From the NCBI GenBank assembly GCA_963924565.1, contig OZ004609.1:17298001-17362000 (forward strand): a stretch of DNA of 64,000 nt. The letters run 5' to 3'. Both the position numbers and the translations under genes were made by a program. The notes under the pieces were generated by a model that was given only the letters and a program-made list of their open reading frames with translations, made no database searches and had not been told where the DNA came from. This document shows, piece after piece, positions 18,821-64,000 of this stretch. Every line of letters begins with the position of its first letter. Within the stretch, counting starts at the first letter, position 1. This stretch comes from Ascidiella aspersa (Eukaryota).

Positions 18821-18902
18821 AATAACTCTTTATTCATTTTCAACATAGAGAGAATTCACAAATGGTAAGTCTCTCTATGTTGAAAATGAATAAAGAGTTA
18901 TT
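18821..18902. repeat. Perfect inverted repeat with 33-bp arms and a 16-nt loop
   Basis: AATAACTCTTTATTCATTTTCAACATAGAGAGA (18821-18853) is the exact reverse complement of 18870-18902. Confidence 0.95.
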
Positions 18903-20033: not shown

Positions 20034-20039
20034 TTTATT
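20034..20039 (-). terminator. Candidate polyadenylation signal (AATAAA) for Sprouty, implying a 3'UTR of about 1.35 kb
   Basis: TTTATT on the plus strand is the first canonical minus-strand AATAAA I found after the Sprouty stop. The intervening sequence is U-rich on the minus strand. Alternative signals occur further downstream (e.g. 19601, 19621). Confidence 0.4.
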
Positions 20040-21370: not shown

Positions 21371-22765
21371 TCATCTGTATGATTCCTTACATCTGCAGCC
21401 AGGCTTTACGCAGTCCGCACACGAGCGACAAGCCCGAATGCAACCCCTTGCCGCTGGGTAGCAGAGCAAACAGGGGAGCACAAGGGACAGTGCAGACAGT
21501 GCGGTCCATCGCAGACAGCACTGAGAGCCGCGGCACGAACACGGTTTGTCCGTACATGTATCGTCATCATCGTAATTGGAGCAGTGGTAAAAACATGCTC
21601 GAACGCAGCAAAGACAGGTGGCTGTCTCGACGCACGAGTCCAGGCTGCAAAGGCACCTGTGGTTGCACATCCAACAGTGGCTTGCGGAGCGACGAGCTGA
21701 CTCGCTTGTGTTGGGAATATCACCTTGACAACGGGGACACATACATTTTCCGCATCGAGGACACGGGTAATTGTGGTCTCCGGGTTTGGGGAAAGCCCTA
21801 CACTCCCCCGAACCCGGTCCAATAAGCTGGTGATCTTCGTCGCCAATAACGTTGTCGAGCTCTGTTATCTTTTTAAGCGAAGACTTGTTAGACGACTTGT
21901 TTAGTTCGGAAGAAAGCTTTTTCTCGTCGGTCCTGATCTCGCGCGTGGAGGTCTTCGATTTGTCGCTCTTTGAATCGGCAAGTTGATCCTTGTGGGGGAC
22001 CTTGGGTGCGGTTGGCTGAGTGATGACTACGTCGGAACGACTGTTCACAGAAGTTCGACTTAACGGCTGCGTCGTTTTCACACCAATGGATGTGACAATG
22101 TTAACGTGACTGTGAAGTTCTAAAGTGGGAACTCCCAAACGCGCCGCGACCTCTGGTGTAGGCGGGGGAGGGCGAGGAGGTGCTATCGACGGGTTTACTT
22201 GAAATGTGGTCGCCGGAAAATTTGAATCGGGGATGGGCGGTGGCGGTCGACTGATTAGCAAGTCAGGGGGTCCGGTATTTCGTCTTCGGGAAGGAAGGTG
22301 ACCGACAGTTTGCGGATAGGGTCGCGGTGGTATGACAGGTGTGTGACCAGTGGACGATTCCAATCGATTCGAAGGTCTCGCTTGATCGATCCGCGATGGG
22401 TCTCTTGAAACGAGGTACGACGGTAAGGATGAGCTTGAAGTGTTGACTCGAGACGCTGAGCCAGGCATACGCCGCGTTCGACCCGAATGGTGCTGCTGAC
22501 GTCTGGACCTTTCGGCGCCTGGGTGTCTGTGGGTTCTCGCGTGTTGGTTACTGGAATCTCTGCCGTGAATATGATCTCGCTGTCCCGTATTGGACTGTTG
22601 CACCAGTGGATGGTCGCTGTAGTCGTTGTCCACAGCCCTACTTCTGTTGCCAGCTTCGGACAATAAGGTAAGTGCGGACGTGTCGGGGGAAGGGCTGGCT
22701 TGCGAAACGGCCGTGCTACCGGTTTCGCTACGAGCAGCAGATGATGATGTCCGAGGCCTAAACAT
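21371..22765 (-). CDS. Spry: Sprouty (RTK/FGF-ERK feedback inhibitor), single coding exon, 464 aa
   Basis: The C-terminal Cys-rich SPR domain spans aa ~335-460 (CPRCGKCMC...TCLCCVRACFYHC...DKPCSC...CCLRW...LPCLLCYP...PGCRCK). The N-terminal NDYSDHP (Y49) fits the Cbl-TKB consensus (N/D)xY(S/T)xxP, equivalent to Spry2 Y55. There is no EVH1 domain, so this is not Spred. The intronless CDS matches vertebrate SPRY genes. Confidence 0.96.
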   Translation of the reverse strand: MFRPRTSSSAARSETGSTAVSQASPSPDTSALTLLSEAGNRSRAVDNDYSDHPLVQQSNTGQRDHIHGRDSSNQHARTHRHPGAERSRRQQHHSGRTRRMPGSASRVNTSSSSLPSYLVSRDPSRIDQARPSNRLESSTGHTPVIPPRPYPQTVGHLPSRRRNTGPPDLLISRPPPPIPDSNFPATTFQVNPSIAPPRPPPPTPEVAARLGVPTLELHSHVNIVTSIGVKTTQPLSRTSVNSRSDVVITQPTAPKVPHKDQLADSKSDKSKTSTREIRTDEKKLSSELNKSSNKSSLKKITELDNVIGDEDHQLIGPGSGECRAFPKPGDHNYPCPRCGKCMCPRCQGDIPNTSESARRSASHCWMCNHRCLCSLDSCVETATCLCCVRACFYHCSNYDDDDTCTDKPCSCRGSQCCLRWTALSALSLVLPCLLCYPAARGCIRACRSCADCVKPGCRCKESYR

Positions 22766-23026
22766 AACTGGAAATGTCGCTTTAAACTATGCCTTTATCA
22801 ATGAATTATCATTGTACTGTGGAAGTTGGCAATATCCCCTTAATAGCTGACGGGCTGGTAGTTGAAGTGTTCGGCGATATCCCGAGTTTCTTTGCGCAAA
22901 ATAATCCAGATGAACTTCAAGTTTGTGCTAATCAAATAGCACTTGAACCTTGGTTTGACAGTCGCAATCCCAAAGTTGAGCTAGCGATAACTTTTTAGCC
23001 TTTATTATATACAGTCGGCTTAATAT

Positions 23027-23055
23027 CTGAAAATTAAAAAAAAAAAAGATTAGCT
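23027..23055 (-). other. Splice acceptor opening the Sprouty coding exon (exon starts at 23026, giving 261 nt of 5'UTR)
   Basis: The minus strand reads GCTAATC (branch-point-like), a long T run, then AATTTTCAG|ATATT, which is a strong acceptor arrangement. Confidence 0.75.
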
Positions 23056-26000
23056 TACAGAAATAGGGTAAGCCTATACCAAAGTACGGAAATACAAACA
23101 CGTGTAGCTTGACACAGCGTGGTCCTAATCCCTGAAATCATAAAACAAGAGAACCGCCACAGCGATACAAGCCAGACGTATCTGTTTTAACATTTGGGCC
23201 GCAGGGCTTCGACGAGGTCAAAAAGTAGGTCGAATACGCTCCTTTACAATACTAAAAGTTTCTCTGATCTGTACCGCTAGCTGCTCTTTAGAATTGCAGT
23301 TCGTTTCGTATTAAAAAAACACACACCGTGTTTTGTTGAATGAAAACTTTTAGATTGATATAATCCTAAAATATAACCTGCAAACATGAACTCAGATAAC
23401 GAGACGCGCTAAAGCACAATTTAACAACATTCCAAAAATAAACAAAATCCACAATACTCGCAACTCATTTAAAACTAAACACTTTTTTGATAAGTCATAA
23501 AGCAGTTGATAAGGTTCAACTCCTAATTACAGCGCATCTACATATACAAGCTAACACAAAAATAAACACAATATTAGAACTGACATAAAAATAGCTATAT
23601 TGAAGTTGTTAGACTTCTATGTAGGGCTGCGCACGCGAAATGAACTTCCCAATCTGACGCGAGATCCGTCACGAGTTGTGTCTCAAAATCGGATCGGCTC
23701 GCGCGAACACGCTCGTAAGAAAGAGATAAGGGGCCTCCGAGGCAGACGCGATAAAATCGCCGTCAAGCTCGAATGAGACCCTACTCCGGAAATTAACGAG
23801 CGGATTACGCGATTGCCTTGGGCAGGCGAAGCTGCAATCTCGAACGCTCGGAAAGTGTTTTGAAAAACGACATTGCGAACATGCGAACGCACCACGATCT
23901 ACATAGGCACTTGTCGGCGAATTACTGACATTCTTTACTTGTTGCAACACAAACCTATTCGCTTCCTCCGCTTAGCGCACCTTTCCAAGTAAGCGCATTT
24001 GTTGCCTTCAACTCTCCGTTTTAATCGCTTAAGCTTGCAAATACAATAAAGCCAGCCCGTTACAATTGTCATATTGAAGAGCGACTTAACACAACTGGTG
24101 TTACCTCCAAATTCAATATTCATCTAACCTTGCAGGCGGGTGGCAAATGGGTTAAACAAAGGGCAATATAGGAATTTAAAAAAGGGGCCCAGAAGAGCGA
24201 GCGAGATAAGGCCGCTGCGGCTTTGCAAACTGTGCGGCGACGAAGGGGGATGTTTAATCAGAGGTTGGGCGGCAAGTCGATCGGACAAGCACAAAGGGAC
24301 GGCGACTGTTTACTCGCGCGTTTCCGCTGTGACAGCACCGCGGGGGTTTTACTGCTCAGATCTTTGACACCTGCTAAAAGAACGAGGGCGGTTTCGTGCG
24401 GCGCAAACCATTGTTTGAAGCGTCCTACATTTTTGCCGATCGCATTAGGCGGTCACCTGTGCAACAGTATCAAAAGTTGAAGAGGCAAAAAAGAGATACA
24501 GTCTCTCGGCAGCACCAATCACCAATACAATCACAAAATGTAACACGGGAATTTTCTAAAAAGATTCGCAAGTTATCTCAAGTACGCCTTCACCAGAGTT
24601 TTGTTCCACTCATAAACCATAACTACGCTGGTCGTCAAATAAATTGTTTACGACCGGGTGCGTTCCGTCAGCGCTCTGAACAACGCCTGAATAAATCTGG
24701 CACCAAACTACGTGCGGAAAATTTATGATGGGCTAAGGATACTCTTTAAATACCAGTAAATGCGAGTCTTAGATGCCTCATATACCGCAAAGTATAGGTG
24801 GCGACAAGCCTACTCCAGTCACCGAATGACTTTTGTCGTGTCAAAACCCGTTATTAGATCAAATGCCCGCGGATGAACGGCGGCTTGAAAGCCACTATTG
24901 CGGAAGGAAATTTACGGCATGACATACTCCTGATGAACTGCGTTGCGACACCGAAAGATTGAAGTAAAATGCAGGCCACAATTCGAGTAACAGGATGTAA
25001 AAGCCACCACACAGTTAAAACCAAATATAATTACGCATAACACGAACCGCAGGTCCAATAAGACTGCAAGTAAATACTGATTCAAGTTTTTTACATATCC
25101 TTAATACTGACTTCAATATTTCACATAACTCACTATTTGTAAAACTTAAGAGGCGTAACAGAGATATCTGCTGAGTGGAAGTAGAAATATAAAGCATTCA
25201 AATAGGCATGCTGACTTCTGTAGCACAGGAGAGTATTTGAGGCTATTAGTCAATTGAGTTTTATTATATACTGAAGCTAACCTAGGGGACAGAGCGAAAA
25301 AGGCCACTATAAACATCAGGTTCATTTTTGTTACGAAGCTTTTTTATTAATAAGCACTTGATCAGGGCGCAGTGTAATAGATCAGCTTCGTTTGAGTGTC
25401 ACATGGCAGAATTTTCGAAACGTCTGCAAAAAACGTTTCGACAATCACTTCTAAAAACTACATTTAAACTATTCAACATGAAAGATAAAAAACACACGTC
25501 TGAGTATGTACAAAACTCAACAAGATATTGCTGGTAACTAGTTACTCAGTTGCGACAAACCTTAAAACTCATACTGACATATGATGCAATCGTTTACCAA
25601 TAATTCAGTCATTAACAATCGTCTTTGTTTCGTTTGCCCATCACAAGGAGTATTTGTGACGTTTATCGAAAAGGTCGATAACATCCGGTTCCAAATATGC
25701 CAAATCTAGTTCTGTGCGTCGCCGTTTTTAAACTACGGATTTGACTCAGGAAACGACGTATGTAATTGATCAAATTGTTGGCGGTGTTGCCCAACTTAAC
25801 CTGTCAAGCGCTTTAAGACAGCTAACCTTTTTCGCGTAGTGAGTGGCTGGCAATTTTGTTCAGCCCATTGAACCCGAAACAAATTACGCCAAATGCGAAA
25901 CAATAAACCCGCACATCCGGCGCCTTTAGAGCAAAGCCGCTGTAGTCGATATTAAATTTGCCACCAAGTCGTCTCCATTTGGGGCATATTTTTACGAAGC

Positions 26001-26121
26001 TTCCAAGGCATCAAGTGGGTTTTTGACGCTTGTAGATTTACCACGAAGGACAACATATCTATTTTTACAACCCACTTGGTTTCTTTCACCGCCTACCGAA
26101 TTTACGAGCTATCTTCCGCTT

Positions 26122-26136
26122 CTGCTGCTGTTGCTA

Positions 26137-26168
<32 letters not shown>

Positions 26169-26169
26169 A
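26122..26169. repeat. (CTG)n/(CAG)n microsatellite, 16 imperfect units with a pure (CTG)9 core
   Basis: Directly visible; the pure run is at 26140-26166. It explains the spurious poly-Leu ORF 26023-26277. Confidence 0.95.
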
Positions 26170-26289
26170 CCTTTTGCCTTTTCGCAGTCGCCTTTTCGCG
26201 ATACCATCCCGAAAACTATTTACAAACGCATCCGTGAAGCTGTTCGCGGCTCCGGTTTTCACAGTTCGGTGACGTAACGTACAACAGTC

Positions 26290-26545
26290 ATCAGGGTGCG
26301 AGATTTTGAGCCTCTGGTTTTATAGATGTCCGACAGTGGCGCTGTGTCCCAGGGCCGAGCTGGCTCCAGCGAACGATAACAGTAAAACGGCGAAGGGGTC
26401 GAGTTACCGGATGCATGCCGCGCACCTGATCTGGCCGCGCAAGCTCTTCCCGACCTGGGTATCGAGGCTCAACGAGCCACGCTGACGTCAGACTGGAAAT
26501 CGGAGCCTGGGTCCCAACCACAAGCTAACCTTGGCCAATTTCTGG
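26290..26545 (-). promoter_or_regulatory. Candidate Sprouty core and proximal promoter
   Basis: A minus-strand TATA box CTATAAAA (26325-26318) lies in a GC-rich island. Upstream of it are an ETS site ACCGGATG (26406-26413), a full CRE TGACGTCA (26483-26490) and CCAAT (26535-26539). The orientation is correct for Sprouty. Motif-based only. Confidence 0.45.
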
Positions 26546-27559
26546 CGGTCTGCGAATGGGCTTGGTCGCTCAGACAAGAAACTAAAACCGGTCAAGTTGG
26601 GACTTTAATTATTTACTTTTGACGCCCTTTTGCTAATTATAGAAACACATATTTTAAGGTGAGATACTTTTTTAGTTTTTGTTTAAGTAACGTAATTATC
26701 AATCTACTAAATTTGTTAACAGAAGTTCTAGTTTCCGGCCTGGCGCGATGCTTAGCTGCAATTTACCAATAAATACAACTTGTGACAACGCGAGAAGGGC
26801 CACGGCCACGGGAACGGCAAGCTGCTATTCTGATCTGTTTGTCGAGCTTGCGTGACCACATCCTACGCTGACTCACGGCAACACGAGAACAAAAAAGCAC
26901 GCTACCTAAATCTCTACTGGTTTAGCAGACGTAGCAGACCTTTCTATATGTGTGACCTAGACTTGAGTTCGCGCCACAAACCTCCTTTTCATCTTAAAAG
27001 CTGCACACTTTTGATATTAAAAAAGGCTAGGTCAGCTGCTAGCAGTAAAAGTAGTATAACATTCTGTGATGAAGGTCAAATGTCGAGTTATCCATAGTTT
27101 TAGTATTCTGAAACTACTATGAAATAAATCCATGTGATTTTCGAAGCAAGACAATATGCTATTGAAAGTCGAAGAAAAAAGTATAACTTTTGCAAGTTTT
27201 ACAAAGTATTGTGCTACCAATTAGATAAGGTTTTCCTATGGTTTCCTGTAAAACAAAAATACAAATGTTAATAATTGAACTGAAACAAAGAATAATTTAA
27301 AAGTCAAACGCACATATTGAAAACATCCACCTAATCTGCCACCAAACTGCGGCAATTCCTGCTTTAAAACACGGCGGGAAAATTTGTTGCCTTTGGTCCT
27401 AGCTTACGTGAGAGAAAAGAATGGTCGAGCGCCTCGCTTTGGAGCGAGCAACCTTTCGTCTGCACAAATCAATTCTATGCCCTTCCGCGGCCGCCTCATT
27501 TCCTTTTTCGACACGCTCGCGCGTTCTTCAGAATGTTTGGCTGACCCTCCGACTCGCAA

Positions 27560-27960
27560 CTATGCGGGGCCCCGGGGAAACGCGGCGGCGCGGCGAATAT
27601 AGAGACGGGCGCGCTTCGCATAAAAGAGAGAGGCCCTAGGAAAAAGAAAGAAACGCGAGCGGCGACGGGAGAAGATAAGCAAACGGAAGAGGAGCGGAAG
27701 AAAAACGGATAAACAAGCGGGGAGGTAAGACTCCGGCCGAAGCAAATATCACGGAATAGCGCAAAGAAAGCGCATGTGCTTAACTACTTCCTCAAAATCG
27801 GCCAAGCATCTCTCGTAGCGCTCAGCTTAACCGCCTCCAAGTCCCTTCAGGCGTCCTCGCTCCGCCATTATTGTTATTAGCGGCGTGCGCGAGGCTCCCC
27901 CTAACCGCTTGCCCGCATCCGGTTTAACCAAAAGGCCCCGCCGCGAGTAGACCGCAAGAG
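27560..27960. promoter_or_regulatory. CpG-rich candidate enhancer with clustered ETS and GATA motifs
   Basis: Motifs present: ACGGAAG (27683), GCGGAAG (27694), ACGGAT (27705), ACGGAAT (27751), ACTTCCT (about 27786), CATCCGG (about 27916), and GATAA (27674 and 27708). Confidence 0.4.
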
Positions 27961-30900
27961 CAACAAGGCCACAGCGACCGAGAACTTATTACTTGTGTGT
28001 ACCTTAATTCTTATATCGGCAACTAAAAAGATAACCAGATTGACCTTAATCGACCGATTAGTTAAAAACTAACACTCAACTATCTTACAAACCTTAACCC
28101 AAGAACGTCGCTGTGGCAAAACAGCCACAAAAGGCGCAAATGAGTAACAAAGCTCGTCAAAGAAATCAAACTTGCAGAATGAACAGATATTCGCCATTTT
28201 AAAAATATTGTGATTTTATTGCACCACAATAAAAATGCAACTAATTAGTGATAACAGATCGAAAAATAGATGCCGAAAATATGCGTGACATTTTCATTGT
28301 ACTTATCGCCAATGGTGCTTCCGACCACGATAAGTGGCGAAAAAAATCCCCAAAGCAAAGCCACTAAAATTAAACGAATTTGTTTGGTGAGTGTCTTTTA
28401 AATAGTAAAAAAGTTGACTTTTAAACACGGTTAATCGGAGACGGTGATTGCCATAGCTTTTATTTTTCGTATTAACATGGTTTTTAAATTTGGAATAAAA
28501 TATCAATTTTATGGCAAATGTTTTTGATAACCAACGTAACCCAAAGATAGAAGGTATACAAAATCAGTTAGTATTCAGCAACTAAAATTGTAATGAATTT
28601 AGCTACAAAACGTTCTTAATTTCACAAAATTTGTTTAACAATAATTCACAATGTTTGGATTTGCGCTTAACCTGATATACCTGATATATTATTTCAGTCT
28701 AAGCTTTCTATATGTGAAATTCGTTAATTGTTTAAAACAACCACCCTTACTACAAAACCTTTTTCTCAAAATATCCTTAAGGTTTCTCTTAATGCTAAGC
28801 GACTATAGTCTTTTCTCTATGGTATGAACATATCCATCGCAGATATAAACCAATGACGTGTCGGCCAAGAGATTCATTTCGATCTTATGAAAAAAAAACA
28901 CGCTTGAAACAAGGATTAAATACATACACAATGAAAAAAAAATAAAGACAGCAATTTTCTCCTGGTGTGCTAGGGCTTTTAGGTAGACGAAAAATCGATC
29001 GTTTTATGGGAGAAAATTTGGCAAATGATTCGCCTCGTCAATATTTGCAAAAACTGTTCGGTTTATCAGCTACAATTCCAGGAAAATGTAAATACTCTTG
29101 GTAAAATTGTTTTGGGAGGACTTTATATTAAATCATGTTGGCTATGGAAGTGCATTTGCAGGCGAGTCCCAAGAGGAACAAGTCAAAGAGTGTGAAATGT
29201 TACAAGCCGCGATTGGCTATATTTGAAATAATCAAATTAAAAAACGACCGACCTTCCAACAACTGTTTACTGGAAAACAAGCACCCAAGCAAATCGATAT
29301 AAATATGCGAATGTTGTCTTTTTATAGGCACACCCGCGTAACATTTTTTTAAAATCCTTATGAAAAATGTAAATACCTGCTGGAGCTTTGTCAATGCGTA
29401 CAAAGGTTTGGTACAATAATTATGAAAATACAATTCCTCGTTGGGGTGAGGTTCGAGCCCATTGAAATCCAGTTACTAGTGGAGCGACACATATTATACA
29501 GAGGAACAACAATTATAGGCGTCAAGCCGTGAGCGGGGTATAGCATGGCTATAAATGCAAATTAAAATAACAGTTGGAATGTAACGGCATCATTCCACCT
29601 TTAAACATTCGTGACATGCGATCATGAGAAATAAACAACTCAATCGCCAAATAAGTTCATTTACTTTTGCATTATTTTATGTTTGGGAGTTTAAACAATT
29701 TTTTTGACTTTTTGGCTGTCATTATGGCGCAACGTACATAAGCACTTTACTCCACTGTCATTTCCTAGTGTATGGGTAATTACTGGCCAATTAGTGCACT
29801 AATGCGTAGAATTGTTTAGCAAAGAACCTCCTCCGACTCGATCCCAAGCATATAAACACAGGTAATAAGGCCTAGCGGCAATTAGTTGGGTGCGACAAAA
29901 AGGCAAGCGTACAGAATTTAATCAAACTAGCCATTTAAATACTTAGGTCTGTAATGAAAGGCAACGTTTTGGCTACTGAGGTGAATGACGTAAGGAAATG
30001 GGTAGACAGGATTTTTTCGCGAATTGCCTTAAACGTTACAAACACACTTATAACATGTCGGTATTTCTGACAAATTAGCCACCGTCGACGATCGCCATGA
30101 TGTGGCGTCAGCTTGTTCGGTATAAACGTCGCACATAAAACACTGTATAGCAGATTGCTGGAAGAGCCTGCGTCAGTAAATAAACAAAACTGATTGGGCG
30201 ATTCTTTTGTAAGATCAAAGGGTGATCTGGAACTAAGTACGCGATAACACGGACTGTTACGTATGGTACTGTGGTGTCCAATTAGCGCACCTTGTAGGAT
30301 ATATATCACCGGCCATGGCAGCTACCGACGTCCAGAAGTATCTTCGTCGAATTACAAGCAATCACAACTCGAATTTGTTGGAAGTCAATGAATCATGATA
30401 CATGAACATCATACGTCTGTATCTGTAAATCCTCCGCAAACAGGGAAAGTTGACTTATTAATCCTTGCACATTAGGCGAACGTATATTTAAAGCATCTCT
30501 TGCTTGCGCATATGTTAATTTTCCACAATGTTGTATCCAAGATGCTTATGCTTGCCATAAGTAATTACACTGGATTTAACCTAGATTGTCCAGTGTGATT
30601 TGCGGCCCTAATCAATCTAGCAACGTTAAGCCAAGTGCGAATTCCACTCAATCTAGTCTAATATCGACATTAACCCCGAGACCTCGGGCAGGTGCGTTAT
30701 TAACACTTATCACAACCAACCCTCACCATTAGAACTGACGGCGAAACAGGTGCTATGCCTTTACCGAAGTGCAATAAATGACGTGTGCTCTGACAGGATT
30801 TATCCCCAATTAGGATATACGTGGTCATCGACTAAGCGATTGTTGTGGCTTAGTCAACCCGGAAACGAATTTCGTGTGGCTTAATACGCTTGGAATTTTT

Positions 30901-39406: not shown

Positions 39407-40155
39407 TAGGGTTCCGCTCCGGGAATGTTTCGACGGGAAATTCCCGGGATTTCCCGCGAATTAACAATCCCGAATCACGGGAAATTTTTTTTATACTCCT
39501 GGGTATTCGGCAACCTAGCAAAACTTAAAAAAAGATTGTAGTTTTTGAGTAACATAAAGAAAAAAGTAGTACCAACCATGTTAAAGTCGTTGCTTGAGTT
39601 TCTTTATTCGCGCTTAAGAGCGGAAAAACTTAATTAAATTTATTCTACCAATAAAAATGCATGCGCTTTTTGTTTAAATAAAAACAAATAAGGGTCCTGA
39701 CTTTAATACGAGAAGGTCTTGTACGATTGCAGAAGCAATACTACAGAACATAAATGGGCGCTTTTTCAGTTATGAACGCATAGATTAATTTAAAATAAAA
39801 CGGTCTTCAAATACCGCATACCACAATGCATATTATTTGGGTTAGGGTGCGGGTTAGCGTTTGGGTGAGGGTTGGTCAAGCGTTATTATTAATAATAAAC
39901 ATAATAATACTTGACCAACCCTTACCCATGCGGTATTTTTTGTTTTATTTTTTGCATAACTTTCCACGTACTTAAGTGAAAGAACGCCCATAAATGAGCT
40001 TAATTAAAAGTTTAGCTAAAATAAATAATTTTAAACGTCATAATGACGTAATTTTATGTATAATTTTTTCGTCGGGATCCCGGGATTCCCGGGAAGTTTC
40101 ATTTTTCAATCCCGTTTCCCGGGAGTGAAAAAATCCGGGAAAAAGAGGAACCCTA
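39407..40155. mobile_element. Non-autonomous hAT (Ac-like, TAGGG termini) element, 749 bp including a nested insertion
   Basis: TIRs TAGGGTTCCGCT and AGAGGAACCCTA match at 11/12. A perfect 8-bp TSD, CCCCTAAT, lies at 39399-39406 and 40156-40163. CCCGGGA subterminal repeats are present at both ends. Confidence 0.92.
39756..39989. mobile_element. Nested palindromic MITE, 234 bp, with an apparent 6-bp TSD
   Basis: The TIRs GGGCGCTTTTTCAGTTA and TAAGTGAAAGAACGCCC match at 14/17. ATAAAT flanks both sides (39750-39755 and 39990-39995). Internal inverted pairs are AAATACCGCAT/ATGCGGTATTT and GGGTGAGGGTTGGTCAAG/CTTGACCAACCCTTACCC, and there is a GGGTTAGGG-like tract. Confidence 0.75.
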
Positions 40156-49100: not shown

Positions 49101-52100
49101 AACCTATTTAATACATTTGTCCATAATAAAGATATATGACTATCTTAGCACTAAGCACAGGTTTTTAATAAGGGGCGCGCCCCGCTAGGGGCCAATTCTT
49201 AGGGAAACTCGAGCTCTACTACAATATTTAACCTTTCGTATAGTAATATTAATGGTTCCACGCTTCGCTTAGTATAAATTTTAATTTTATACTGTGTCAC
49301 CCCTAAACTACACATGTGTAGAGATAAGTTACTGAAAATTTGGTTTATGATTTTAGATTTGCAAGTTTTTGAGCTGCTAGTTTTTATTCATTTTTCGGTG
49401 TTTTTGCCTTTTCTATTTATAATTGCCACTTTTACGACCGATTTGTGCTATATTTAGTTACAAATCTGGTTGAGTTAACGGAAATCTAATTTATACACAT
49501 GGGTTCGGCACCAGACCGTGCCCCCGAGCTATATTTTTTGTGCTTTACATTTATTCTGAATTGTAGGCGTTTTTTAGCTAACTCTTCGCGCGTATTACAT
49601 GTTCAGTTTGCACTGTCACATAGCTAATGATTTTATTCAATATTTTAGCAAACTATTTTTCAGGGGGTTTATTCAATACTTTGTGAGGGCAATTAACCCT
49701 ACAGCTACATAGCTGCCCAGAAATCAGACAAATAGTTAAAAAAATTGTAACCTACGGATAAGTTAGTAAAACTATCGTTTAACTAACACAAAGACCGAGA
49801 AGAAAATTGGATTAGTGTTAAGAAAATAAATTTACGCGAAAAAACTTTAACACGGGATTTTTGCTTTTATTTTATATTACATTAATAAAATAGGTAAATT
49901 ACTCGTTTTAACATGGTCAAAAATATATCGTTTACTAGTACGGCGCATCGACAATACTTATTTTGCGTACTCTCTTAACAACAACCTGTTTGGTTTAGTC
50001 TTTGTCTATATTCTCCTTCCTAATATAACCCGGGGTGTGCCTAACGTTAAACAGTGAAACAATTTATTTTAAAAGTATTATTATAACTTATGACCGGTTT
50101 GGCCAACCAGGGGCTGATATAAGGCCCTTTACTCATGTTCAGTGCAGTATAGGGCGACACCTTGCTCAAATCACTGATTTACAAGGATCGATATCGTATA
50201 TTGTATTACGTTCTAGGAACCCAGTGATTTCATATGAGAACCATCAACAGCCGCGTTGAAACATTTTTTTATCAATTCCTCCATGATATACAACAATTTG
50301 GCAGTATGTCGTCTCATTATTGTTGGTGTAAAAATTGAGCTTGAATCTCGCTAAGGAATCGCGTTTTTTGTGTAAAAAATAAATGGAATGATATTCACTT
50401 CTGTTCAAGTGTATAGTGTGGCTCTTTGCGGTTCATAAAATATTTTGAAGAAGTGTAACCTTTGGTCACTTACTGGTTTGCTAACCCTGGCCTATAACGT
50501 TTATGAATTAAGCGAATATAACATATTTCATTTTCCGATTGACTAGTAACCTCCGAAACAAACGGGAGTAATATATTAAAACCGCCATAATAATATAAAA
50601 TTTGTTACAACATAGAAATCCTTAATATATTATAGTACACATCAATCGTATGTATTGAAAAAACTGTGGCCTATGAAAAGCAACTGACATGTCCTTCATA
50701 AAATCGGGTGACAAAACGCGATTTAACACTAGCTGGTTTATGAGAGTTGTTTAACGAGAGGAATAATGTAACAGGGGTATTGTTTTGCAACTGGGTCGTT
50801 ATTCATTTGTCAAAGCTGTGCCATTCTCTGTTAAGGACTAAGTAAAGTTAGCGTGGCTTCGTAAATTTTCCCATTTCCAAGCAAACCGACCCTTATCAAA
50901 TCTTGGCCTGTGCAAACTGCCCATAAAAGCGCAGCTCTTCTCAAAGCACCGCGCGATACGCTTCATTTTGTAACTGTATTTTTGAAAGCGACACGCGACA
51001 CCCTAAGTCGCAAGGAAACGGGAGTGCCTGGGCCTTTTACCGCGCGAGTGCAATTGGTGCAACGAGCAAAGCAGCCCATTGTCTCGTGGAGGGTAAAGGC
51101 ACGCCAAACTCGCGGCCTCCCTCTACAAGTAGGAAATACTAACACCACACAGGGGGCGACGCCACTCAAAATGTCACAAGGTCATGTGAAAAGAGGATTT
51201 TTTAGCCCGCTGGTAGATTGGCGTGTAGCGTGATATAGAAACTAAATCACACGTTATATCGAAACGAAATCATATGTTTGCACATTCACTGTTCAGCCAT
51301 ATCTGATGAACTTACAAAGAGAAAGAAAAAAACGATGCGGACACCAACGCTAGCAGTTTTTGTATATTTCACCAAACCTTTGCACTATAACATGTAGAAA
51401 GTAAATTTTAGAGAGGCCTAACATCATATAAACAATACAATAAATCCCTGTGTTACCAATTGGTTGAATAGAATACAAAGTAAGTTTCTGTACTGGGGAC
51501 ATCTAAAAGTCTTAAAATGGTCAAGTTCAAGTAATATTCACGACTGGACAGTTGCAAAACATTAATGCCATAGGCAACATTTTTTTAATCAGTTTTTACG
51601 AATGGTGTTTTATTTTTATGGGAAATAGGAAGTGTTATAGCTGACCGCTGAATCTTCCACCAAATCGCCGCATGTCAGCCATCTTTGCAGACAAATATTG
51701 GGTCGACAAAGAACAAAAACTGTACGTACAGTAAATCTACGAATTATAGTAAAACCCCACCTAGTCGTCAAAACTTGGGAAGCGGAAGGCTGATTTGATA
51801 ACCCTTTTTTACGCTTCCTAATTATTATATCAGTCAAAAGAAAGAAGGATATACCATAATTACAATAAACGCCAGACAATGGTTCAAAAATCCAAAAGGC
51901 GTTTTAGCGGATTCTAAATCGGCGAGTTGAGGCGGAATGGTAGAAAACAAACTAATAACTTATTAGGTAGATTTTTCACCATAAGAAATCAAACTTGCAG
52001 ATATAAAGTCTTCCGCGCTATAATGTAATTCAATTATTCCAATATGCCGTTTTTGCACAAAGATTTACACTCCCCACTGCCTTTTCATTTAAAGCCTGGT

Positions 52101-52865
52101 TTTAAGCGAAGCAGAATTAACAACTTAGTCATCGAATTATGTACGCGGTTCAGCTTCCGGAATGGACACCATACAGCGGTATGCGCGTGAAGTTGAAGGG
52201 AAGGGTCGTAAAAACTGGGCACAACAAAGCGCCGAACGCAAGCAAAGGGGAGCCAAATTAACGCCGAGCGACTTGGGGCCAAGCGGTGCGTGTCCAACTG
52301 GGGACGGAAACGAACGCGTGAAGGGAAGGGCGTAATTACATTAGCGCTGAAGCGAGGGAGCGAGGCAAAAGCCTAATTAACCTCGCCGAGACCTTACGGT
52401 TAAGTGCTGGTGATTCTACTGAATAGCGTACTCTGCAACAACGGCGGGTGGTATCATCGCACTCCTTTAATTCGTTAGCAAAAATAGCAAACGATTTTCT
52501 TTTCTTTTGAATTTCTTATGTGACACGATTTTTACAAGTGATATAGCGGGACCTTGTGGCTGTTTTCTAGCGAGATTATTACAATTTGTCCCGATAGACA
52601 TTCTGCGGTTTGTGCATTTGGCAAGCTTTAGCAAGTCAACATTATCTGCTGCTACTGTTAAGCGTTTTGCATTACGACCCGCTAAGCTAGGCTAATACAA
52701 TCAACATAATCCAGCCGCGGACAACTGACATTGTCTCGACAAATTTGCAAATCTAAGGATAACTTTTAAATGAAGACGGGTCGCTTTATATTAAGCGCAA
52801 TGAAAAGAACTAAAACATTGTTACTGCGATAAGAAAATAACTGGATTCGAGATACAAGACGGTTT

Positions 52866-52871
52866 TTTATT
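52866..52871 (-). terminator. Polyadenylation signal AATAAA of SPATA5
   Basis: A minus-strand AATAAA lies about 57 nt after the TAA stop at 52928. Confidence 0.65.
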
Positions 52872-52927
52872 TTGTACACGAAAACACGCGTTCATGTCAA
52901 CTAATAAACCTCGCCCAACCAGGTAAA

Positions 52928-53104
52928 TTATTTGATCCGAGTTTGGAGCGTCCTTCCATATTCTTCATACATCCTGGCACGTTCACTGGTAGTCTGTGGG
53001 TGAACAAGCGAGATTGCCTTGACGAAATGCCGTTTACAAACCAGTGAAGCTTCTTGGTCGTCGACAAGTGCCTCTAGCGCCGCTTCGCGGCAAACGGAGC
53101 AGAT
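52928..53104 (-). CDS. SPATA5: SPATA5/AFG2A (AAA+ ATPase, 60S ribosome biogenesis), terminal coding exon
   Basis: The acceptor is TTTTTGATTCAG|ATC. The exon encodes ICSVCREAALEALVDDQEASLVCKRHFVKAISLVHPQTTSERARMYEEYGRTLQTRIK* (177 nt, phase 0). It continues the exon at 60803-60967 in frame, and CREAAL...KRHF is the AAA lid region. Confidence 0.92.
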   Translation of the reverse strand: MCSVCREAALEALVDDQEASLVCKRHFVKAISLVHPQTTSERARMYEEYGRTLQTRIK

Positions 53105-53711
53105 CTGAATCAAAAAGAGCGCGTCAAGTTTATTGGTAGGAAGTGAAGGGTTCGTAAAGTTTAGGGTCTTTTGCATAGTTAAAAATGGTTTCAGGCGTGT
53201 TTTGTTTGATACATTTAAGCACATAAATTTAAACGTAGACGTTTCTTTTTAATTTAAAAGAAACAACCCTTTATGTGCATTATCATATCTCAGTAAAATA
53301 GTCTTTGATCACGGTCTAAATTCCAACAACAAACATAATATAAATTCTAGTTTATTGGTAACTATGGCATAACACTGTGTCCTACAGTATGCAAATAATC
53401 GGGGATATCGATTTTCTTAAACGTTATCAAATCAAAAAAGCACCAATTCGTTACAGTTGTACTAGCCCGAAAATAGGACATCACAGCACAGGCAAGCAAC
53501 AATAAATAACGTGAAGAACAACCTTTTTTTTTTTTTTTTATGCCTAAAATATCCCACAACACATTCTTACAAAGGCCGAACTACCTAAATAGGCATGATA
53601 TTTAAACTATTTTTGAAAGAGGTATAAAACGTAAAATCATGTTTGAAAATTCAACCGAAATATATATTTCATCGTATTAGTAAGCTCATCAGATTTTAGG
53701 TTTTATACCTA

Positions 53712-53809
53712 TTTTATAAACAGTCTAAATGTCATCCCCTTCGAAAGCAAGCATCTTTATTTTACATTTTATTGTCAACGGGAGCTTCCCAACATTCAGA
53801 AGTGTTTCA
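53712..53809 (+). repeat. Dispersed repeat of about 100 bp, copy 1 (copy 2 at 57611-57705)
   Basis: The blocks TTTTATAAACAGTCT, TTTACATTTTATTGTC, CGGGAG and AAGTGTTTCA are shared in the same order and orientation. Confidence 0.75.
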
Positions 53810-56800
53810 ATTATATAAATAGAGAGGTACACAAACTTTTATTAGAATATGTGACAGTTAGAACCTTTGTTTACATCTTTTATTCAGCATCCATTCATTA
53901 GTAGGCGGGTCTTTCCTGCACTTAGGCGGGAGTGCGCTATTTGACGCAACACGCCCCACAATATATCACTCACATAGGCGCAGTCTATTAACACTGAGGC
54001 TAGACTTTCTTCTTCCCTTTGACGGATGAAACGAAACGCAAACACGCTTTGTGACGCCACTTGAATGTGAATGGCATCCGGTCGTTCCTGTTTACGGTCT
54101 CCCGGGTAAGACGGATGAACCGAAAGCAATAACACGGCAGGAAGTATGTTTTTTTGTGAAAAGGAAGGGGGTGACGTCACATTTTTGTCAGCGCACAATT
54201 TTGCAGTGGGCAGGTGTTGGATATCAAACACGGAATTAGGGGGGCGTAAAACCGTAGGCAGACCCTGTGGATGAGGCACGTCGCAAGGGTCGCGCGTCAC
54301 TGCAACAAAATGTCGGCCCGATAGAAATGGTCGCGCATAGCGTGACGACGACTCGGTAAGAAACGCGGAAGAGTGAACAAGAACGGAGAAGAACAAAAGC
54401 ATCGACCCACATTTCTGCCACGGGTGGAGGCTATGATTTACCCGACTCACCAACCGCTGGCCCTGTTGGTAGATTTACAACCAATACTTCAGATAAAATA
54501 CTTATACCGCAACAAATCGTCGGCAGCTGCTAAATGGACTACGTCAACACCCGCTTGGGTTCCGAAACGCGATTCGTTTAGCAAGAGCCCTTGACATAGG
54601 TGACATCACGTGAGGTTGGAACAGCCGGTGGAAAAATTACGCAAAATTGCCAAGCCAAAATACGTTACTCTCAGGTACAGGTGCGTCCTCTATATAAAGC
54701 TTGGCAAACTCGAGTTGCGAGGGTCATATGTACGGGAAATGTAAATCGAAATCCGCCCGAAATCAAATCCCGCCTTTCGCCTCTGGATTCACAAAGCCCA
54801 TTTCAAAGTGTCGGGCGAAAGGAAAGTCAGCGTAATTGGTGTAACGGGATAAACCCGTTTCCCGACGAGACTGGGCAGCTGCGACGGTGGGCTTGAGATA
54901 AATTTACAGCTGCGTTTGCGCCGCCAGCCCAGTCCGATTTGAAAACAAATTACGGATTTTTTCTTAAAGCCTTCTTGACTCGCGCGCCCGGGCGGTGGCA
55001 ATATGGGCAGCTGGGGAATTCAGCAACATCCATCGTTAAATCACAGTCATCAGGAAAAAAACGCCGAACTATTTCGCCGTAAGGCGGGCCGTAATCGAAC
55101 ACGCAAAGCCGGAAGCGCATTACGCCTGTGAAGCAACTTGGCAAATCCTCCAAAAACAAGCGCCCAAGACGGCGCAGATGATGGTGTGACCCCGCGCCGG
55201 GTTCACGCCACATCATAGCGTCTCCGCCAGCGCTTGTGGATACCCACGACGCCTGTGCGGGTTTGGCGGCCTGTGTACACAACCATATGCAAGCACTTTG
55301 CACCGTTTTGTCATCACCGAAACCAAGGTGTACTAAATTGGTAAACGTCCGGAGTATTTTGCAGCAATTTGGAATGTATGGTGTCGAGAACAATGTAATT
55401 ATTACATATTAGCAGTTTCTTTAAAAACCAGACGTAGTAAATTATATAAAGTAGGTACTATTTTTATACACCGAGACACATCGTCTCGAGACACATCGTT
55501 TGAAGCTGACACATTTAAAAAAAACATAACTCAATAAGACGCCGGCTTTGGTCTCTTTAAGTACAGCTGTATATGTAAACGAGTAGCCAGGAATGTACCA
55601 CACAAAAAGCAGCCACTCTTAACATATTTTACCGACTGGACGGAGTTGGCGTTTTTAGTGACAGTATCTCGAGTAGAGTAGTGCTGTCACATCACCAAGC
55701 TTCGTCAACCAACGGCAGTGCCAGAACTCATATTAATGCTTGTGGTAAGCGGCCGGTAGTGATGCGGTGAAACGCCGAGAGCCGCTGCAGACTGAGCGGC
55801 ACCAACAGGCTCGCAAGGATGCGACGACCACGCTTAAGTGTGCTGCCAGATGCCAGTAAACGAGCCGAAAAAGAGTGTATGTAGTGGTAGTGGCTGAACC
55901 GGCGTTTGATGCGTTCAGTAGTGGATTGAAAGCTCCTTGGTAATCCACGGATTCGCTAAGTGCTAGTTCGCCAACGGCATTCGGCCATCTCCCACGAGGT
56001 ATTCAGGAAAGAACTAGGATTACGCCGGATGCTTACAACTCCTGAATAAATGGGCTACTACATTACACGAACACGGATGGCGATGACGGGCAAGAATGTG
56101 GCGACGCGCCCGCCTGACAGTTCAAATCACACGATCGGAAATTGACAAATCCGCCTGCCGGGAATTATGCATTAGCGGTAAGACCAAACGACAGCTTCTT
56201 AAAAGCCAACCGTCTTGAGTCGACCACCAACGACAAGACTAAGGCCTTATACGCATCACGTGACCACAAAAATATGTTATACTGATTTACCAGTAAACAG
56301 ATACACATCAGGTTTGTCGACAGGTCTGGGGGGTAAGATTGTACAGCTACGCCATTTACAAAACACTGCGAAAGCCGTTGGTCGGAGCTTAAGGAAGATA
56401 AGCTATTGTAAACGCAAAAGTAATTCTTCAGAAAAAAAATATAAAATGTTACAAATCGATCTGACAATGGCAGAATTACGTAAACAGTCTTAGAGGCAAA
56501 CTGAGGTTTTAAATTCACGTCGCAAACGTAAACGAAGCAACAGAACGAGACCAACTCGAAGTCATTACAGACAGCATGTCCGGTCGTTTTGTGCGAACAA
56601 ACAGCCAGCAAATCGATTGGGGCGACATGATTCATCGATCATTGTGCAGCAAACCGAAGAATTCCTGTGGCAATGTAAACGAAAATAGCTTTACATTTTG
56701 ACACGGGTGCAAATTTTACCCCTTTTAACACCGGCTATGACGCAAACGAAGCGAAGCCCCCTGCTTGAATATCACTGCGACGAGCTGCGATGGAATTTTA

Positions 56801-57610
56801 TTACGGTCTACGTGTCCGTGTGAAAATTTCCGGACAGCTTGTTGCGCTACGTTTGAAGAAAAAGCATCCATTCGCGAAGGTAAGGCGAAATAAAGCCGAA
56901 TGAAAATGGTATATATATAATGTTACTTCTATAAATCCCTATTTGTAACCTACGAGAAGTTCATTGCCTTATAGACATGTAGAAGTGACATCTCTGCAGG
57001 TTTTGTCAATCAAGAATAGAAATGAACTTGACAACTGCACTTTACAGGACAAGAAGAGTATCGCGTTTTAGCCAAACCCGTAATCACGCGAAAGCGTCAG
57101 ACTTCCACTCACCCCGCCTTAAGATTAAAAGCAAGTGGGGTCGGGACGGGTTTCGATTCTTCGATGCGTGACAAAACAAAACAAGCGCCAAAACCGACAA
57201 ACAAACACCAACATCCGGATGACGAGTGCTCTGAAAGGCGCCGATGCGTGCCCCCGGGACCTCATTAGGAGAGGGTGGACCCCCGCGAAGAGCACAAGTA
57301 AGGCGATATACACGATTGTCCGCCGGGTGGCTGCTGTCACTCAACTCCCCAATAATCAAGTGGCTGCATCTTTTTTTATGAATAAGGCTCTGTCTATCAA
57401 AAGTTGTGAATGGGCTTTGCGTTGGCCAGCTTTACACGGATATTCGGCACTGTGTTCAAACAAAAGAGTATGATTCGGGAAACGTGCGACGTACGCGGCT
57501 TGAATTACTAATAATTCTACTGCATACTGGTTCTATATACAGATTCCGTGTTAACTATTCCAAAGAGATTTAAACAATGGAAATAATATCATTTTTTATG
57601 TTTCATCTGT

Positions 57611-57705
57611 TTTTATAAACAGTCTTAGATCATCAGATACGAAACAAGAATCTTTCGTTTACATTTTATTGTCTGCGGGAGATTCCTTACTTCCTAAGTG
57701 TTTCA
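57611..57705 (+). repeat. Dispersed repeat of about 100 bp, copy 2 (copy 1 at 53712-53809)
   Basis: It contains the same ordered blocks as 53712-53809, with substitutions and small indels. Confidence 0.75.
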
Positions 57706-60544
57706 GCTGGGAAATATATCAGTCATACTTTGGTGTTCGAATTTATCCTAGACAATTAACAACTTAAACCCACAACAAACACTGAACTTAAATAGTTTAT
57801 TAGAAACCTGGGTCCTTCCTCATTTTTTTAATTGAAGACGCCCGAACAGTATATCTATATAGCAACGAAATGGTTCAATAAGTGGTTTATACAACTTACT
57901 GTATATATTAAGTAACTGATGTTTATTTGCCCTGTTGAGGTCAAAGCAGTGCCATGGAACGTGTTCATCGTGAACGAAAAAGTAACAAGCTTGCATTGTC
58001 AAAACAACAGTGGACTGTAAAAATGTAAAGCTTCTTGCGACATATGACAATAAGGGGTTCAGCTTTAAATACCAACATATACTCAATAACTAATAAAACG
58101 TTAAATAAATAAGCTATGTATTCGGCGGAGTTAAAAGGAAATGATTTTAAACGTAAAGTATAGTTTAGTGAATGTTTTATTTTCATATTTTACGTACAAA
58201 AGTGAAATTTCGTAGTCCCTAAAATGGCTATAGGAGATCTAATACGCAAAATATATGTTAACGCTAAGTTAATCAAAATATCACATGAATATTCCTATGT
58301 GATTTATCCTTTTTCGGCAAGTTAAACATCTGTTGCTTTATATCACAAAAACCATGACTAAAAAGATGATATTTGAAAAAAAATTGCCGAAATAATCAAC
58401 AGTGAGATTTCCTTATAAATAGCTAAAATCCCCGTTTCCGCCAACTCATCCCCAAATCAACCATCATTAGAATCCGACAGCTGTATGCCTGTCAAGTGGA
58501 TAGGAAAACAAATATCACCAGTGTAAACTAGAAGTTCAATCCGAGTGGCCTACGTCTCCGTGGCGATCCGTATGACGTCAGCACGACTTGCAGGGAACGC
58601 AATCTCGCCATACGATCTCGCAAAACCCGGATACCTTCGCAAATCTCATCGCCGCGCTTCCGACTTAAAGGCTGTCGGGCGGTAATGTAAGTTAGAGCCG
58701 AGCGGTGCCGCGCGGCAATTAAACGTGCGACCTTCGGCAACGATCAAAGGTTAAAGAAACAACCGGTCGGAGGTCGATTTCGCGATATATGCCCTGATCG
58801 GGTTACAACAGTGCGCGGCTATGCCCGGTCAGGTTTTTATACTCTTGTTGCTACAATTCGGTCGCGAAGTTTGCGCGCGCAACGCACATCGGGCCAAAGA
58901 TACATATCTTATAGGAGGTTTATTTTAAATCGCACCACTCTGTTTGTCGCGTCCAGTGGAATGTAGAAGCAAATCGTGATTTAACAACGATATTAACAGC
59001 ACTACGGGTGTCCGTCTCGGAGTTGTCATTTACTCATGATCAGGGTTTCTGTCGTCACAGCAAACGAGGAAGTAAATACAGGATATGTGTTCTGGTGTGA
59101 AATGTAAAAGCGGCATTCCTGTCTGGGACAGGTGCTTCGCTTCTTTTTGTTGCGGCACAAAGAAGGTAACACGGCCAGTGCGCTGTCACGGTAGATGATC
59201 GTAGCTGGAAGACGTCAACGAACGCTTTGGGGAGCTTAGACGTGGAGAGGCTGCTTCCGAAGTGGCTTGCTCGCGTAACGAAAGGTTAACTGCCGGGATG
59301 ACGCGCGTCAAGTCAAATTGGCTGCCTCAGTAATCTGAAATTTGGGCCGATCTGGCATCGCTGTTTAAGGATTTTTTTTCAGTCGGATTGCTTTCGTCGG
59401 CCCTATAAAATTTCATGGTGCATTTACGATTGTGTGAAAAGTAATCTGTACACAGTTCAAATTATTTTACAATAGGACTATAATGAACACAATCTTGGCA
59501 GCAATCAAGCGATTGCCTTTAAGTGACCTACTGGTTGCAGTTGAAAAAGGTGGCAAAAATCTGTTTCTTATGTAATTTTGTACGACGTAGTTGTTTGATT
59601 ATTTATACATTTTATAATATGTAACTAATTCCGTTGGTTTGGGCACTGCATTTCGCCCCACACAAATATTAAATCAGGCAATAACAATTTTAAAATCCTA
59701 GCGCGGTAAACTTCCCTTTGATGTTCGTTTTGCTTTAACCACTACCAATTCCGCAAAATCGACTGCCACGTTTTTTAGTTTAGGTTGTATGAGTTGTCTT
59801 TTGAAACGTAATTTGACACAATTCAGTGTGCCAACGTGACTTCCATGACATCATCGGATCGGCGCGTCAGCCCAAGCAAACCCAAGGAGCCGTTCTGCCC
59901 TTGCTTCCGATCATTTGACCTCCAGCCCACGTAAGCTTCAGAAGGGGTCAAAGGTCAAAGCCGGGGTCACAACGACAGATAAAGAAGCGAAGACCAACAA
60001 CAATGGGAGGCGGACTACAATCCACCAAGGGCCAGGGAATTACATCGAGATAAAATGTGTGGTCTATGTTAAAAAAATGTTTAGCGTATTTTTGTCACAC
60101 GCAACAAACATTGTGGTCTGCCATTCCCAACTGTTTTACCTTTTTTTTTACTTTTTTAGAAAAATTGCGCAACGGTCCCTCAGCAATTTTAAATTGCTCA
60201 CGGTCCCTATACACAAAATAACATTTGTTTTTAATGGTATCAATGGGACGGTTGCACTTGTTCTTTGTTATCAGCTCGGCTATGTTAACCTCTAACGAAT
60301 CACTTTTTTTGTGTGAAGCAATCACGAACAGTTTTAAAACCGTGGCCGTACAGCTCAGCAAGCTGTAAAAACGTAACTCTCATTAGAACAATGCAATACT
60401 ATGACGTCACAATGGACAATTCAACTCGAAGTGTACAATAACGTGAATGAACAACTAATCAGCTTGCTTTGGAAAAGTAAGTTTCCTGAATTTTTTTGGC
60501 ACAAGAGGTTTTCTTCTTTAGGAGAGTCGTTTTGATTTTTTGTT

Positions 60545-60599
60545 AGGTGCTTCGCGGTTCCAGAAAATTGTCTCGCGGACCCCAGTTTGAGAACCACTG
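60545..60599. mobile_element. Terminal fragment of a Charlie-type hAT MITE (other end not resolved)
   Basis: ...GCGGACCCCAGTTTGAGAACCACTG is followed by CTCTAGAG, an NTCTAGAN-type Charlie target site. No clean left TIR was found. Confidence 0.55.
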
Positions 60600-60802
60600 C
60601 TCTAGAGGTTTATGTTTTGGTGTGACTTTTTAATCGCACTGATTGCCTAATTATGTGTAGGGCACAGGGAATAGAAGTTAAAGAGAATATATAGAAAATA
60701 AGAAAATAACTGTTTTAAACTAAATGGGCAAGAAAACGTGACGCAGTTGTCATATCCCGGCAATAGCGTGCATCAATGCCATAATTGGTGTTGTGTACTT
60801 AC

Positions 60803-60967
60803 CTCCGCGCCCGAATACATATCAGTGGCGTGGACGAGCTCGTCAATGCTGACATCACAAGCGATTGGCATCTTTTGAAATCGGATTCGGAAGATTTCGC
60901 GCCTGGTCATGACGTCAGGCAGGGGAACGTGGAGGATCCGGTCGATTCTGCCAGGACGCATGAGGGC
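60803..60967 (-). CDS. SPATA5: SPATA5/AFG2A penultimate coding exon (D2 second region of homology and start of lid); the gene continues beyond the window
   Basis: The acceptor is TTTTTCAG|GCC and the donor GAG|GTAAGT. The 165 nt encode [59 protein letters not shown] carries the arginine finger. [11 protein letters not shown] fits SPATA5 better than VCP, NVL or SPATA5L1 (from recall of those sequences). Confidence 0.93.
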
Positions 60968-63727: not shown

Positions 63728-64000
63728 CCGGGTTGCCAGTCTTTGGACTTTTTAAAGTCAAATTTCAATATTTCGGATTTTTTTGAACCTCTTTGTTTTG
63801 TATTTTTTTATTTTAATGAAATTTGGCTTTTTTCGGATTTTTTGGTTTCATTCAAAAATTTCATAAGTTTTATTTTGAGAAGAGATCAAACTATCGCTAC
63901 CAAGAAAAAAATCACAAAAAGGGGAAAATTGCCAAGAAAAATTTCCAAATAGAAGAAAAATTTCCAAAATGAAAAAAAATTGCTACAAAAAGAGAAATTC
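63728..64000. mobile_element. Probable left part of a DNA-transposon MITE, truncated by the window end
   Basis: It starts CCGGGTTGCCAGT (CAGGGTTGCCA-like terminus), followed by repeated TTTCGGATTTTTT and AAAATTTCCAAA motifs. The other end is not visible. Confidence 0.4.

Follow-up and report, generated by a model that had tools for sequence, protein, structure and literature searches.

A 64,000-nt stretch of the Ascidiella aspersa contig OZ004609.1 (positions 17,298,001 to 17,362,000 of the forward strand; hereafter the window) was analysed, in which the AAA ATPase gene SPATA5 (AFG2A) lies upstream of a Sprouty gene. The contig measures 39 Mb in a genome totalling 308.6 Mb. The analysis also took in flanks of 80 kb (left) and 120 kb (right); positions outside 1-64000 are given in window-extended coordinates. 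Both are single genes on the minus strand, co-oriented and 30 kb apart, and the pair is most likely an ancient microsyntenic regulatory block of an established type. Besides gene identity and adjacency, an intron expansion restricted to the 3' part of SPATA5, an excess of ETS-type motifs, a depletion of repeats and the same neighbourhood in Ciona were observed. As the reading we consider on balance probable, FGF-ERK-ETS feedback enhancers would extend upstream of Sprouty into the SPATA5 3' introns and constrain rearrangement. The two genes are annotated in the window as follows:

21371..22765, minus strand: Sprouty coding region, single exon, 464 amino acids from ATG to TGA (Pfam, genome search and RNA)
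23046..52927, no strand: 30-kb repeat-poor interval, gene-free by detection, which may include Sprouty 5' untranslated region (5'UTR) exons at about 24-27 kb and the SPATA5 3'UTR
52928..53104, minus strand: SPATA5/AFG2A last coding exon and stop (GT/AG phase-0 ends; aligns to Phallusia and Ciona SPATA5)
53105..60802, minus strand: SPATA5 last intron, 7,698 bp, phase 0 between YSGAE and I, with 20 ETS-type sites
60803..60967, minus strand: SPATA5 penultimate coding exon, 55 codons (GT/AG phase-0 ends; aligns to Phallusia and Ciona SPATA5)
60968..64000, minus strand: in-window part of a 12,209-bp SPATA5 intron, which runs on to extended position 73176 (G000:C3:17371176)

The Sprouty open reading frame (ORF) matches Pfam PF05210 with an E-value of 6.9e-28, the sole Pfam match on its 471-amino-acid frame, and a single match was found genome-wide, making it the only Sprouty present. 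A C-terminal cysteine-rich SPRY domain and an N-terminal NxYxxxP motif are present and an EVH1 domain is absent, indicating Sprouty rather than Spred. The N-terminal motif is retained as NDYxxxP, which we take to be the Cbl-binding motif. Minus-strand RNA reads cover the gene at 20.3-23.7 kb, followed upstream by faint sense reads at 24.3-27.0 kb. For comparison, another ascidian contig (L021) was used, which reaches 10 kb only and encodes a Sprouty about 51% identical to that of A. aspersa. In front of the A. aspersa coding region lies one further feature:

23027..23045, minus strand: pyrimidine tract and CAG, likely a splice or trans-splice acceptor of the 5'UTR, 261 nt before the Sprouty ATG

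L021 has an equivalent acceptor-like site about 258 nt ahead of its ATG. Based on these sites in two ascidians and the faint sense reads, the Sprouty 5'UTR probably carries an intron or a trans-splice site. A preliminary description of this DNA had called Sprouty intronless, which holds for the coding region but not for the 5'UTR. A possible Sprouty promoter consists of TATAAAA, which is TATA-like, and a TGACGTCA site upstream of it (minus strand, 26320-26330 and 26482-26490); the segment is conserved in a close relative. Coral metagenome contigs (L044-L064, L075) contain at least three divergent Sprouty-domain paralogues, several without the N-terminal CxxC part of the domain.

SPATA5, presumably a ribosome-maturation ATPase, has about 14 coding exons on the minus strand, from about 82.4 kb (extended) to the stop at 52928; the ends of the first nine are approximate. 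The five exons of the D2 domain join by GT/AG into a stop-free frame of 267 amino acids, sharing 84% identity with Phallusia SPATA5 and 48-52% with archaeal CDC48. In a tree with archaeal CDC48 and no eukaryotic VCP or AFG2B rows, it groups with phlebobranch SPATA5. An upstream exon ranked AFG2A first in the PDB, above VCP and AFG2B, and the next-best genomic locus is 48% identical. Two AAA domains, a closer relation to AFG2A than to VCP, AFG2B or NVL, and the placement in the tree all assign the gene to the SPATA5/AFG2A class; the possibility that the exons belong to another AAA ATPase was thus checked, and the SPATA5 identity held. The identities proposed earlier for both genes are supported by Pfam, alignment, tree and score comparison, the named best matches for both being from Phallusia, Ciona and Clavelina. 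These matches and the tree mark the DNA as that of a phlebobranch ascidian. Elsewhere in the genome, a single open frame of 1,291 codons encodes an AAA-ATPase, possibly an intronless SPATA5L1/AFG2B (G000:C4:14829407, L095).

The tail-to-head arrangement on one strand with a gene-free gap of about 30 kb, as first described, was borne out by the ORF, Pfam and RNA checks. None of the 83 ORFs of at least 68 amino acids between the genes (23-52.9 kb) matches Pfam, and an Rfam search across 84 kb gave no matches. At the shallow RNA depth used (about 6% of one run), no further clearly transcribed unique segment was seen at 27-37 and 41-52 kb, with faint and repeat-overlapping bins only, and no splice joints were listed. 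The first ten SPATA5 introns are between 67 and 1,373 bp long, and the final three reach 3,199, 12,209 and 7,698 bp; of the large 3' introns reported before, the figure of 7.7 kb stands, while the one given as more than 3 kb measures 12.2 kb. Vertebrate SPATA5 models skip or end exactly after IDK and after YSGAE (P0131, P0155, P0158, P0181, P0184, P0189, P0195, P0199), and the same breaks occur in Ciona (P0204, P0208) and crinoid (P0082) models. The suggestion that the last intron falls at a shared position between YSGAE and I is therefore in agreement with vertebrate, Ciona and crinoid isoforms; human SPATA5 intron positions were not found in print.

Next, the linkage was followed in other animals. 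Human SPATA5 and SPRY1 are presumably co-oriented. The vertebrate order Spry1, Spata5, Nudt6, Fgf2 appears in a passage of PMC6070626, supporting the SPATA5-SPRY1 order on which the preliminary description drew. Supplement 4 of PMC8851819 classes the block (5476) as 'Vertebrata novel'; according to a methods passage of that paper, a block requires three genes, so a two-gene SPATA5-Sprouty survival would be missed. In Ciona, chromatin accessibility (ATAC) peaks of Spry (KH.C2.825) lie at KhC2 5,327,368-5,343,703 and a peak of SPATA5 (KH.C2.814) at 5,372,357 (PMC6952182, supplements 2 and 8), placing both genes within about 45 kb by peak coordinates. CCDC12 maps close to the first Spry peak, with Spry between it and SPATA5, the same arrangement as that of cwf18/CCDC12 in A. 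aspersa. One scaffold of 473,105 bp carries both Spry (XP_033113450-53) and SPATA5 (XP_033113460-61) of the crinoid Anneissia, 7-10 accessions apart. Known vertebrate neighbours are 5 accessions apart in seahorse and far apart in turtle, so closeness of accessions is informative and distance is not. Scaffold lengths were identical for both genes in all five invertebrates with both placed (Ciona, Styela, Anneissia, Patiria and the tick Ornithodoros); coral, amphioxus, hemichordate, abalone, Owenia and Clavelina, with just one of the two genes placed, stand outside this count. When seven SPATA5 proteins were compared by tblastn with all of the 56 Sprouty loci from metagenomes, no match was obtained, which is uninformative with flanks of at most 10 kb. 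Accession closeness in Phallusia (CAB3266520/541) was discounted as linkage evidence, the numbering probably being alphabetical.

The proposed persistence of the linkage in invertebrates is thus upheld by the Ciona coordinates and the crinoid scaffold. Based on the proximity of about 45 kb in Ciona and the shared 473-kb scaffold of the crinoid, the pair is likely deuterostome-ancient, and it very likely predates vertebrates, having been present in the tunicate-vertebrate ancestor. Long-distance linkage, one criterion for a regulatory block, was found in vertebrates, Ciona and, indirectly through scaffold and accessions, the crinoid. Another, a developmental gene beside an unrelated bystander, was found here as well; Ciona Spry is FGF-dependent, and SPATA5 is unlisted among the FGF-regulated genes with differential peaks. 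Introns of the bystander are enlarged, and the domain is poor in genes and in repeats, both to a moderate degree. Measured against a 600-kb panel, repeats cover 3.6% of 20.3-77.2 kb; the flanks have about 14.5%, and 40 random 10-kb tiles average 14.0%. GC content at the locus is 0.41-0.43 versus 0.37.

The motif [AC]GGA[AT]G, the ETS consensus, was one of six patterns chosen beforehand, and expectations were corrected for second-order composition and the CpG-rich background. It occurs 86 times in the domain against 55 expected, ranking 18th among 9,216 like patterns, and most top-ranked patterns are GGA-core variants. In the last two SPATA5 introns, 40 sites were observed versus 23 expected (rank 20 of 9,216); in the 30-kb gap its rank is 241, with GGA-core variants again topping the list. 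No enrichment was seen in the flanks (rank 1,220) or downstream of Sprouty (rank 1,955), and GATA, E-box, TAATT and cAMP-response element (CRE) motifs gave no consistent domain-wide excess. The ETS motif is enriched in L021 as well (rank 20 in the 10 kb upstream of Sprouty). Five ETS sites in 300 bp form only one such cluster in the 264-kb locus plus 400 kb of random DNA, and it lies in the last SPATA5 intron. The ETS cluster and the non-coding elements colinear with L021 are:

54023..54371, no strand: densest ETS-site cluster in 264 kb, six sites in 350 bp and a TGACGTCA site, single copy, in the SPATA5 last intron
27673..27965, no strand: conserved non-coding element; L021 retains its four ETS-type sites (70% identity, E 7e-37)
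23743..23948, no strand: conserved non-coding element upstream of the Sprouty ATG (74% identity to L021)
20035..21170, minus strand: conserved patches within the Sprouty 3'UTR or immediately beyond it (20035-20224, 20642-20703 and 21096-21170; L021 comparison)
16984..17062, no strand: conserved non-coding element downstream of Sprouty (80% identity to L021)

Compared to the close relative mentioned above (organism C), 4.7% substitutions were counted at 27321-27994 and 5.9% at 53852-54341, the latter against 7.6% over the Sprouty gene. The element at 27673-27965 is a candidate FGF/ERK-responsive Sprouty element and the cluster at 54023-54371 a candidate intronic Sprouty enhancer, both judged from sequence features. 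The Sprouty regulatory domain probably reaches across the 30-kb gap into the last two large SPATA5 introns. ERK-activated ETS factors would bind clustered sites near Sprouty and inside these introns, and the bound sites would drive Sprouty as negative feedback on FGF signalling. SPATA5 would be a bystander. Separating the two genes by a break would remove Sprouty enhancers and be selected against. For the earlier proposal of Sprouty enhancers in the SPATA5 introns, the ETS enrichment, repeat depletion and Ciona chromatin are favourable, if indirect, signs; the NUDT6 or FGF neighbours suggested with it did not appear.

According to the PMC6952182 supplements, Ciona Spry is down with dominant-negative FGFR (log2 fold change -1.27, adjusted p 7.6e-4) and four peaks near it respond to FGF-MAPK perturbation. 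Spry is present in the table of FGF-regulated genes with differential peaks and SPATA5 is absent. Foxf loss closes one Spry-assigned and one SPATA5-assigned peak. The Spry-SPATA5 interval holds 1.44 ATAC peaks/kb, versus 0.31 and 0.24 in the flanks and 0.50 for the chromosome up to there, densities taken from sequential peak numbers and assuming numbering by position.

Several observations weigh against intronic Sprouty enhancers in an ancient block. Equally repeat-poor tiles (0.08 or less) make up 13 of the 40 random ones, the 5' part of SPATA5 is repeat-poor too, and its last intron has a repeat cover of 8.8%. A proteasome-ATPase gene has a 7.5-kb stretch without a detected exon, so long introns are also found in ordinary housekeeping genes. 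The ETS ratio of the last intron, 2.04, was reached by one of 40 random tiles (2.05). Deep conserved elements were seen near Sprouty only, the SPATA5 introns being covered by the close relative alone and L021 reaching 10 kb. Organism C, 86-95% identical in the listed pieces, was compared without a neutral control, and no one contig of it spans both genes. Outside A. aspersa, the linkage evidence consists of proximity or scaffold sharing, without orientation or strict adjacency, and it is same-chromosome evidence only in Patiria (scaffold of 10 Mb, genes separated by 93 accessions), Styela (20 Mb and 327) and the tick (84 Mb and 761), the last of which entered the five-species count after its match had been seen. 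The Ciona SPATA5 peak may lie outside the introns, and model KH.C2.625 is within 10 kb of it; peak density near Ciona CEP135 is also high (1.1-1.3/kb). The intron position after IDK also occurs in a sponge model, so shared SPATA5 intron positions are uninformative about enhancers.

The strongest competitor, which we consider unlikely though well worth weighing, also takes the pair as ancient but has SPATA5 merely walling a Sprouty intergenic regulatory desert, with all needed enhancers in the 30-kb gap and neutral SPATA5 introns; breaks in the gap would be harmful, and SPATA5 would remain by default. Every deep conserved element found lies no farther than 6 kb from Sprouty; FGF-responsive peaks in Ciona, in a table restricted to peaks within 10 kb, all lie that close to Spry; long introns in other housekeeping genes fit as well. 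However, ETS sites are in stronger excess in the two introns, where the motif ranks 20th, than in the gap, where it ranks 241st; the densest cluster is also intronic, and the expansion is limited to the Sprouty-facing introns. According to a second alternative, the intronic ETS/CRE elements control SPATA5 itself or both genes, tying ribosome biogenesis to ERK signalling. This is improbable: growth factors are generally known to control ribosome biogenesis, and a Foxf-dependent Ciona peak is assigned to SPATA5 by distance, but the Ciona FGF-regulated table lists Spry and not SPATA5, and the 5' part of SPATA5 is CpG-poor, as is characteristic of stably expressed genes (passage of PMC3827831). 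Adjacency by chance, or as an unconstrained remnant of slow rearrangement, is more improbable still, for although some pairs persist by chance and three of the five species give same-chromosome evidence only, tunicates lost 95% of bilaterian novel blocks (PMC8851819), only 197 pairs with deep conservation were identified in Ciona (PMC3514665), and NUDT6, FGF and NDFIP moved away in A. aspersa while SPATA5 and Sprouty stayed.

Within SPATA5, the observed/expected CpG ratio is 0.48 in the 5' exons and 1.19 in the 3' exons, with a sharp switch at about 78.5 kb (extended). The D1 and D2 exons differ in synonymous CpG use (10/99 versus 50/124, p 3e-7) and in GC content at third codon positions (0.30 versus 0.58). 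The same 5'-low, 3'-high pattern is seen in the adjacent GALNT gene and in most of the 11 AAA-ATPase loci used as controls; the switch was therefore rejected as the edge of an unmethylated Sprouty domain and as block evidence. It probably reflects 5'-limited gene-body methylation in this genome. CpG depletion of housekeeping genes seems confined to the first 3-6 kb or so (extended 78.5-86.5 kb, L002-L003; controls L077-L096). In Ciona, according to a passage of PMC3827831, gene-body methylation spans the whole body, unlike the A. aspersa pattern.

Concerning neighbouring genes, NUDT6 or an FGF gene had been suggested beyond position 64000; a GALNT-type gene was found there instead, head-to-head with SPATA5 and followed by a PKD/REJ-like gene. 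The closest FGF match is 6.6 Mb off, with none near the locus, and NUDIX gave no match near it. A NUDT6-type family search gave no match anywhere, controls included. Of the vertebrate SPRY1-SPATA5-NUDT6-FGF2 block, A. aspersa has the two-gene core only. In vertebrates, SPRY2 flanks NDFIP2 and SPRY4 flanks NDFIP1; the sole NDFIP match here (G000:C3:18988095) lies on the same chromosome, 1.67 Mb from Sprouty. Downstream of Sprouty, about 25 kb without a Pfam match (ORFs of at least 80 amino acids only) precede cwf18/CCDC12 (L013:4971-5754), and a TAFA-family gene and a ZP-domain gene are found on that side as well (L014:5507-5767 and L014:9444-9722). Among the REJ-domain exons of the large PKD/REJ-like gene, a PA28 proteasome-activator gene is found in antisense orientation on the minus strand (L006:5257-6222, about 119.3-120.2 kb in extended coordinates), apparently within one of the introns. 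High-copy short repeats, MITE-like (resembling miniature inverted-repeat transposable elements) or minisatellite, occur at 17605-18024, 18870-18990, 35564-35898, 57594-57704 and 60150-60599, and some of the window's high-copy repeats appear in RNA reads on both strands.

Compared to the vertebrate block, the same two orthologues adjoin, and the last intron positions after ERG, IDK and YSGAE agree with vertebrate isoform breaks. In contrast, A. aspersa has a GALNT-type gene in place of adjoining NUDT6/FGF2, a single Sprouty and a scale of tens of kb; the two-gene core thus exists outside vertebrates. Ciona is said in a passage of PMC3420111 to have lost FGF1/2; Fig. 3 of that paper maps the amphioxus and human FGF1/2 loci and might display the pair, and Spry or Spata is not in its text passages. 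The Ciona robusta KH.C2.825 locus (PMC6952182) is alike in its CCDC12-Spry-SPATA5 order within tens of kb and its FGF-MAPK-dependent Sprouty; the text of that paper leaves Spry and SPATA5 unmentioned, assigns peaks within 10 kb only and makes no long-range or synteny claim. The pairs of Irimia et al. 2012 (passages of PMC3514665), namely Otx and Islet with bystanders, Foxc-Gmds and Fgf20-Efha2, likewise place a developmental gene beside a large-intron housekeeping gene with cross-phylum linkage. Chromosome conformation capture and transgenic proof exist for some of these, whereas SPATA5-Sprouty is known here from sequence and published Ciona tables. The main text passages of PMC3514665 are without Spry or Spata5, and the full pair list in its supplement may contain the pair. 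It is not in the PMC4729200 or PMC13012124 supplements nor in the main text of PMC13317027, and passages of PMC5684340, PMC4698300 and PMC13594500 have no bearing on it. In our literature search, no paper describing an invertebrate SPATA5-Sprouty link was found.

The concept of a regulatory block with a bystander gene is already established. Few gene pairs survive in tunicates, and real cis-regulatory constraint is usually what the survivors point to. What has been catalogued as a vertebrate-specific block is now very likely traced at least to the tunicate-vertebrate ancestor, and likely to deuterostomes. The 350-bp intronic ETS cluster is a concrete enhancer candidate and hints where vertebrate SPRY1 enhancers may lie. 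A broader claim can be put forward only tentatively: this might be an unrecognised block of at least deuterostome age, perhaps bilaterian given the shared chromosome in the tick, in which FGF/ERK feedback acts via ETS enhancers in the last introns of a ribosome-biogenesis gene, and one of the few pairs to survive tunicate scrambling. If true, intronic variants or deletions in human AFG2A/SPATA5 would act partly through SPRY1.

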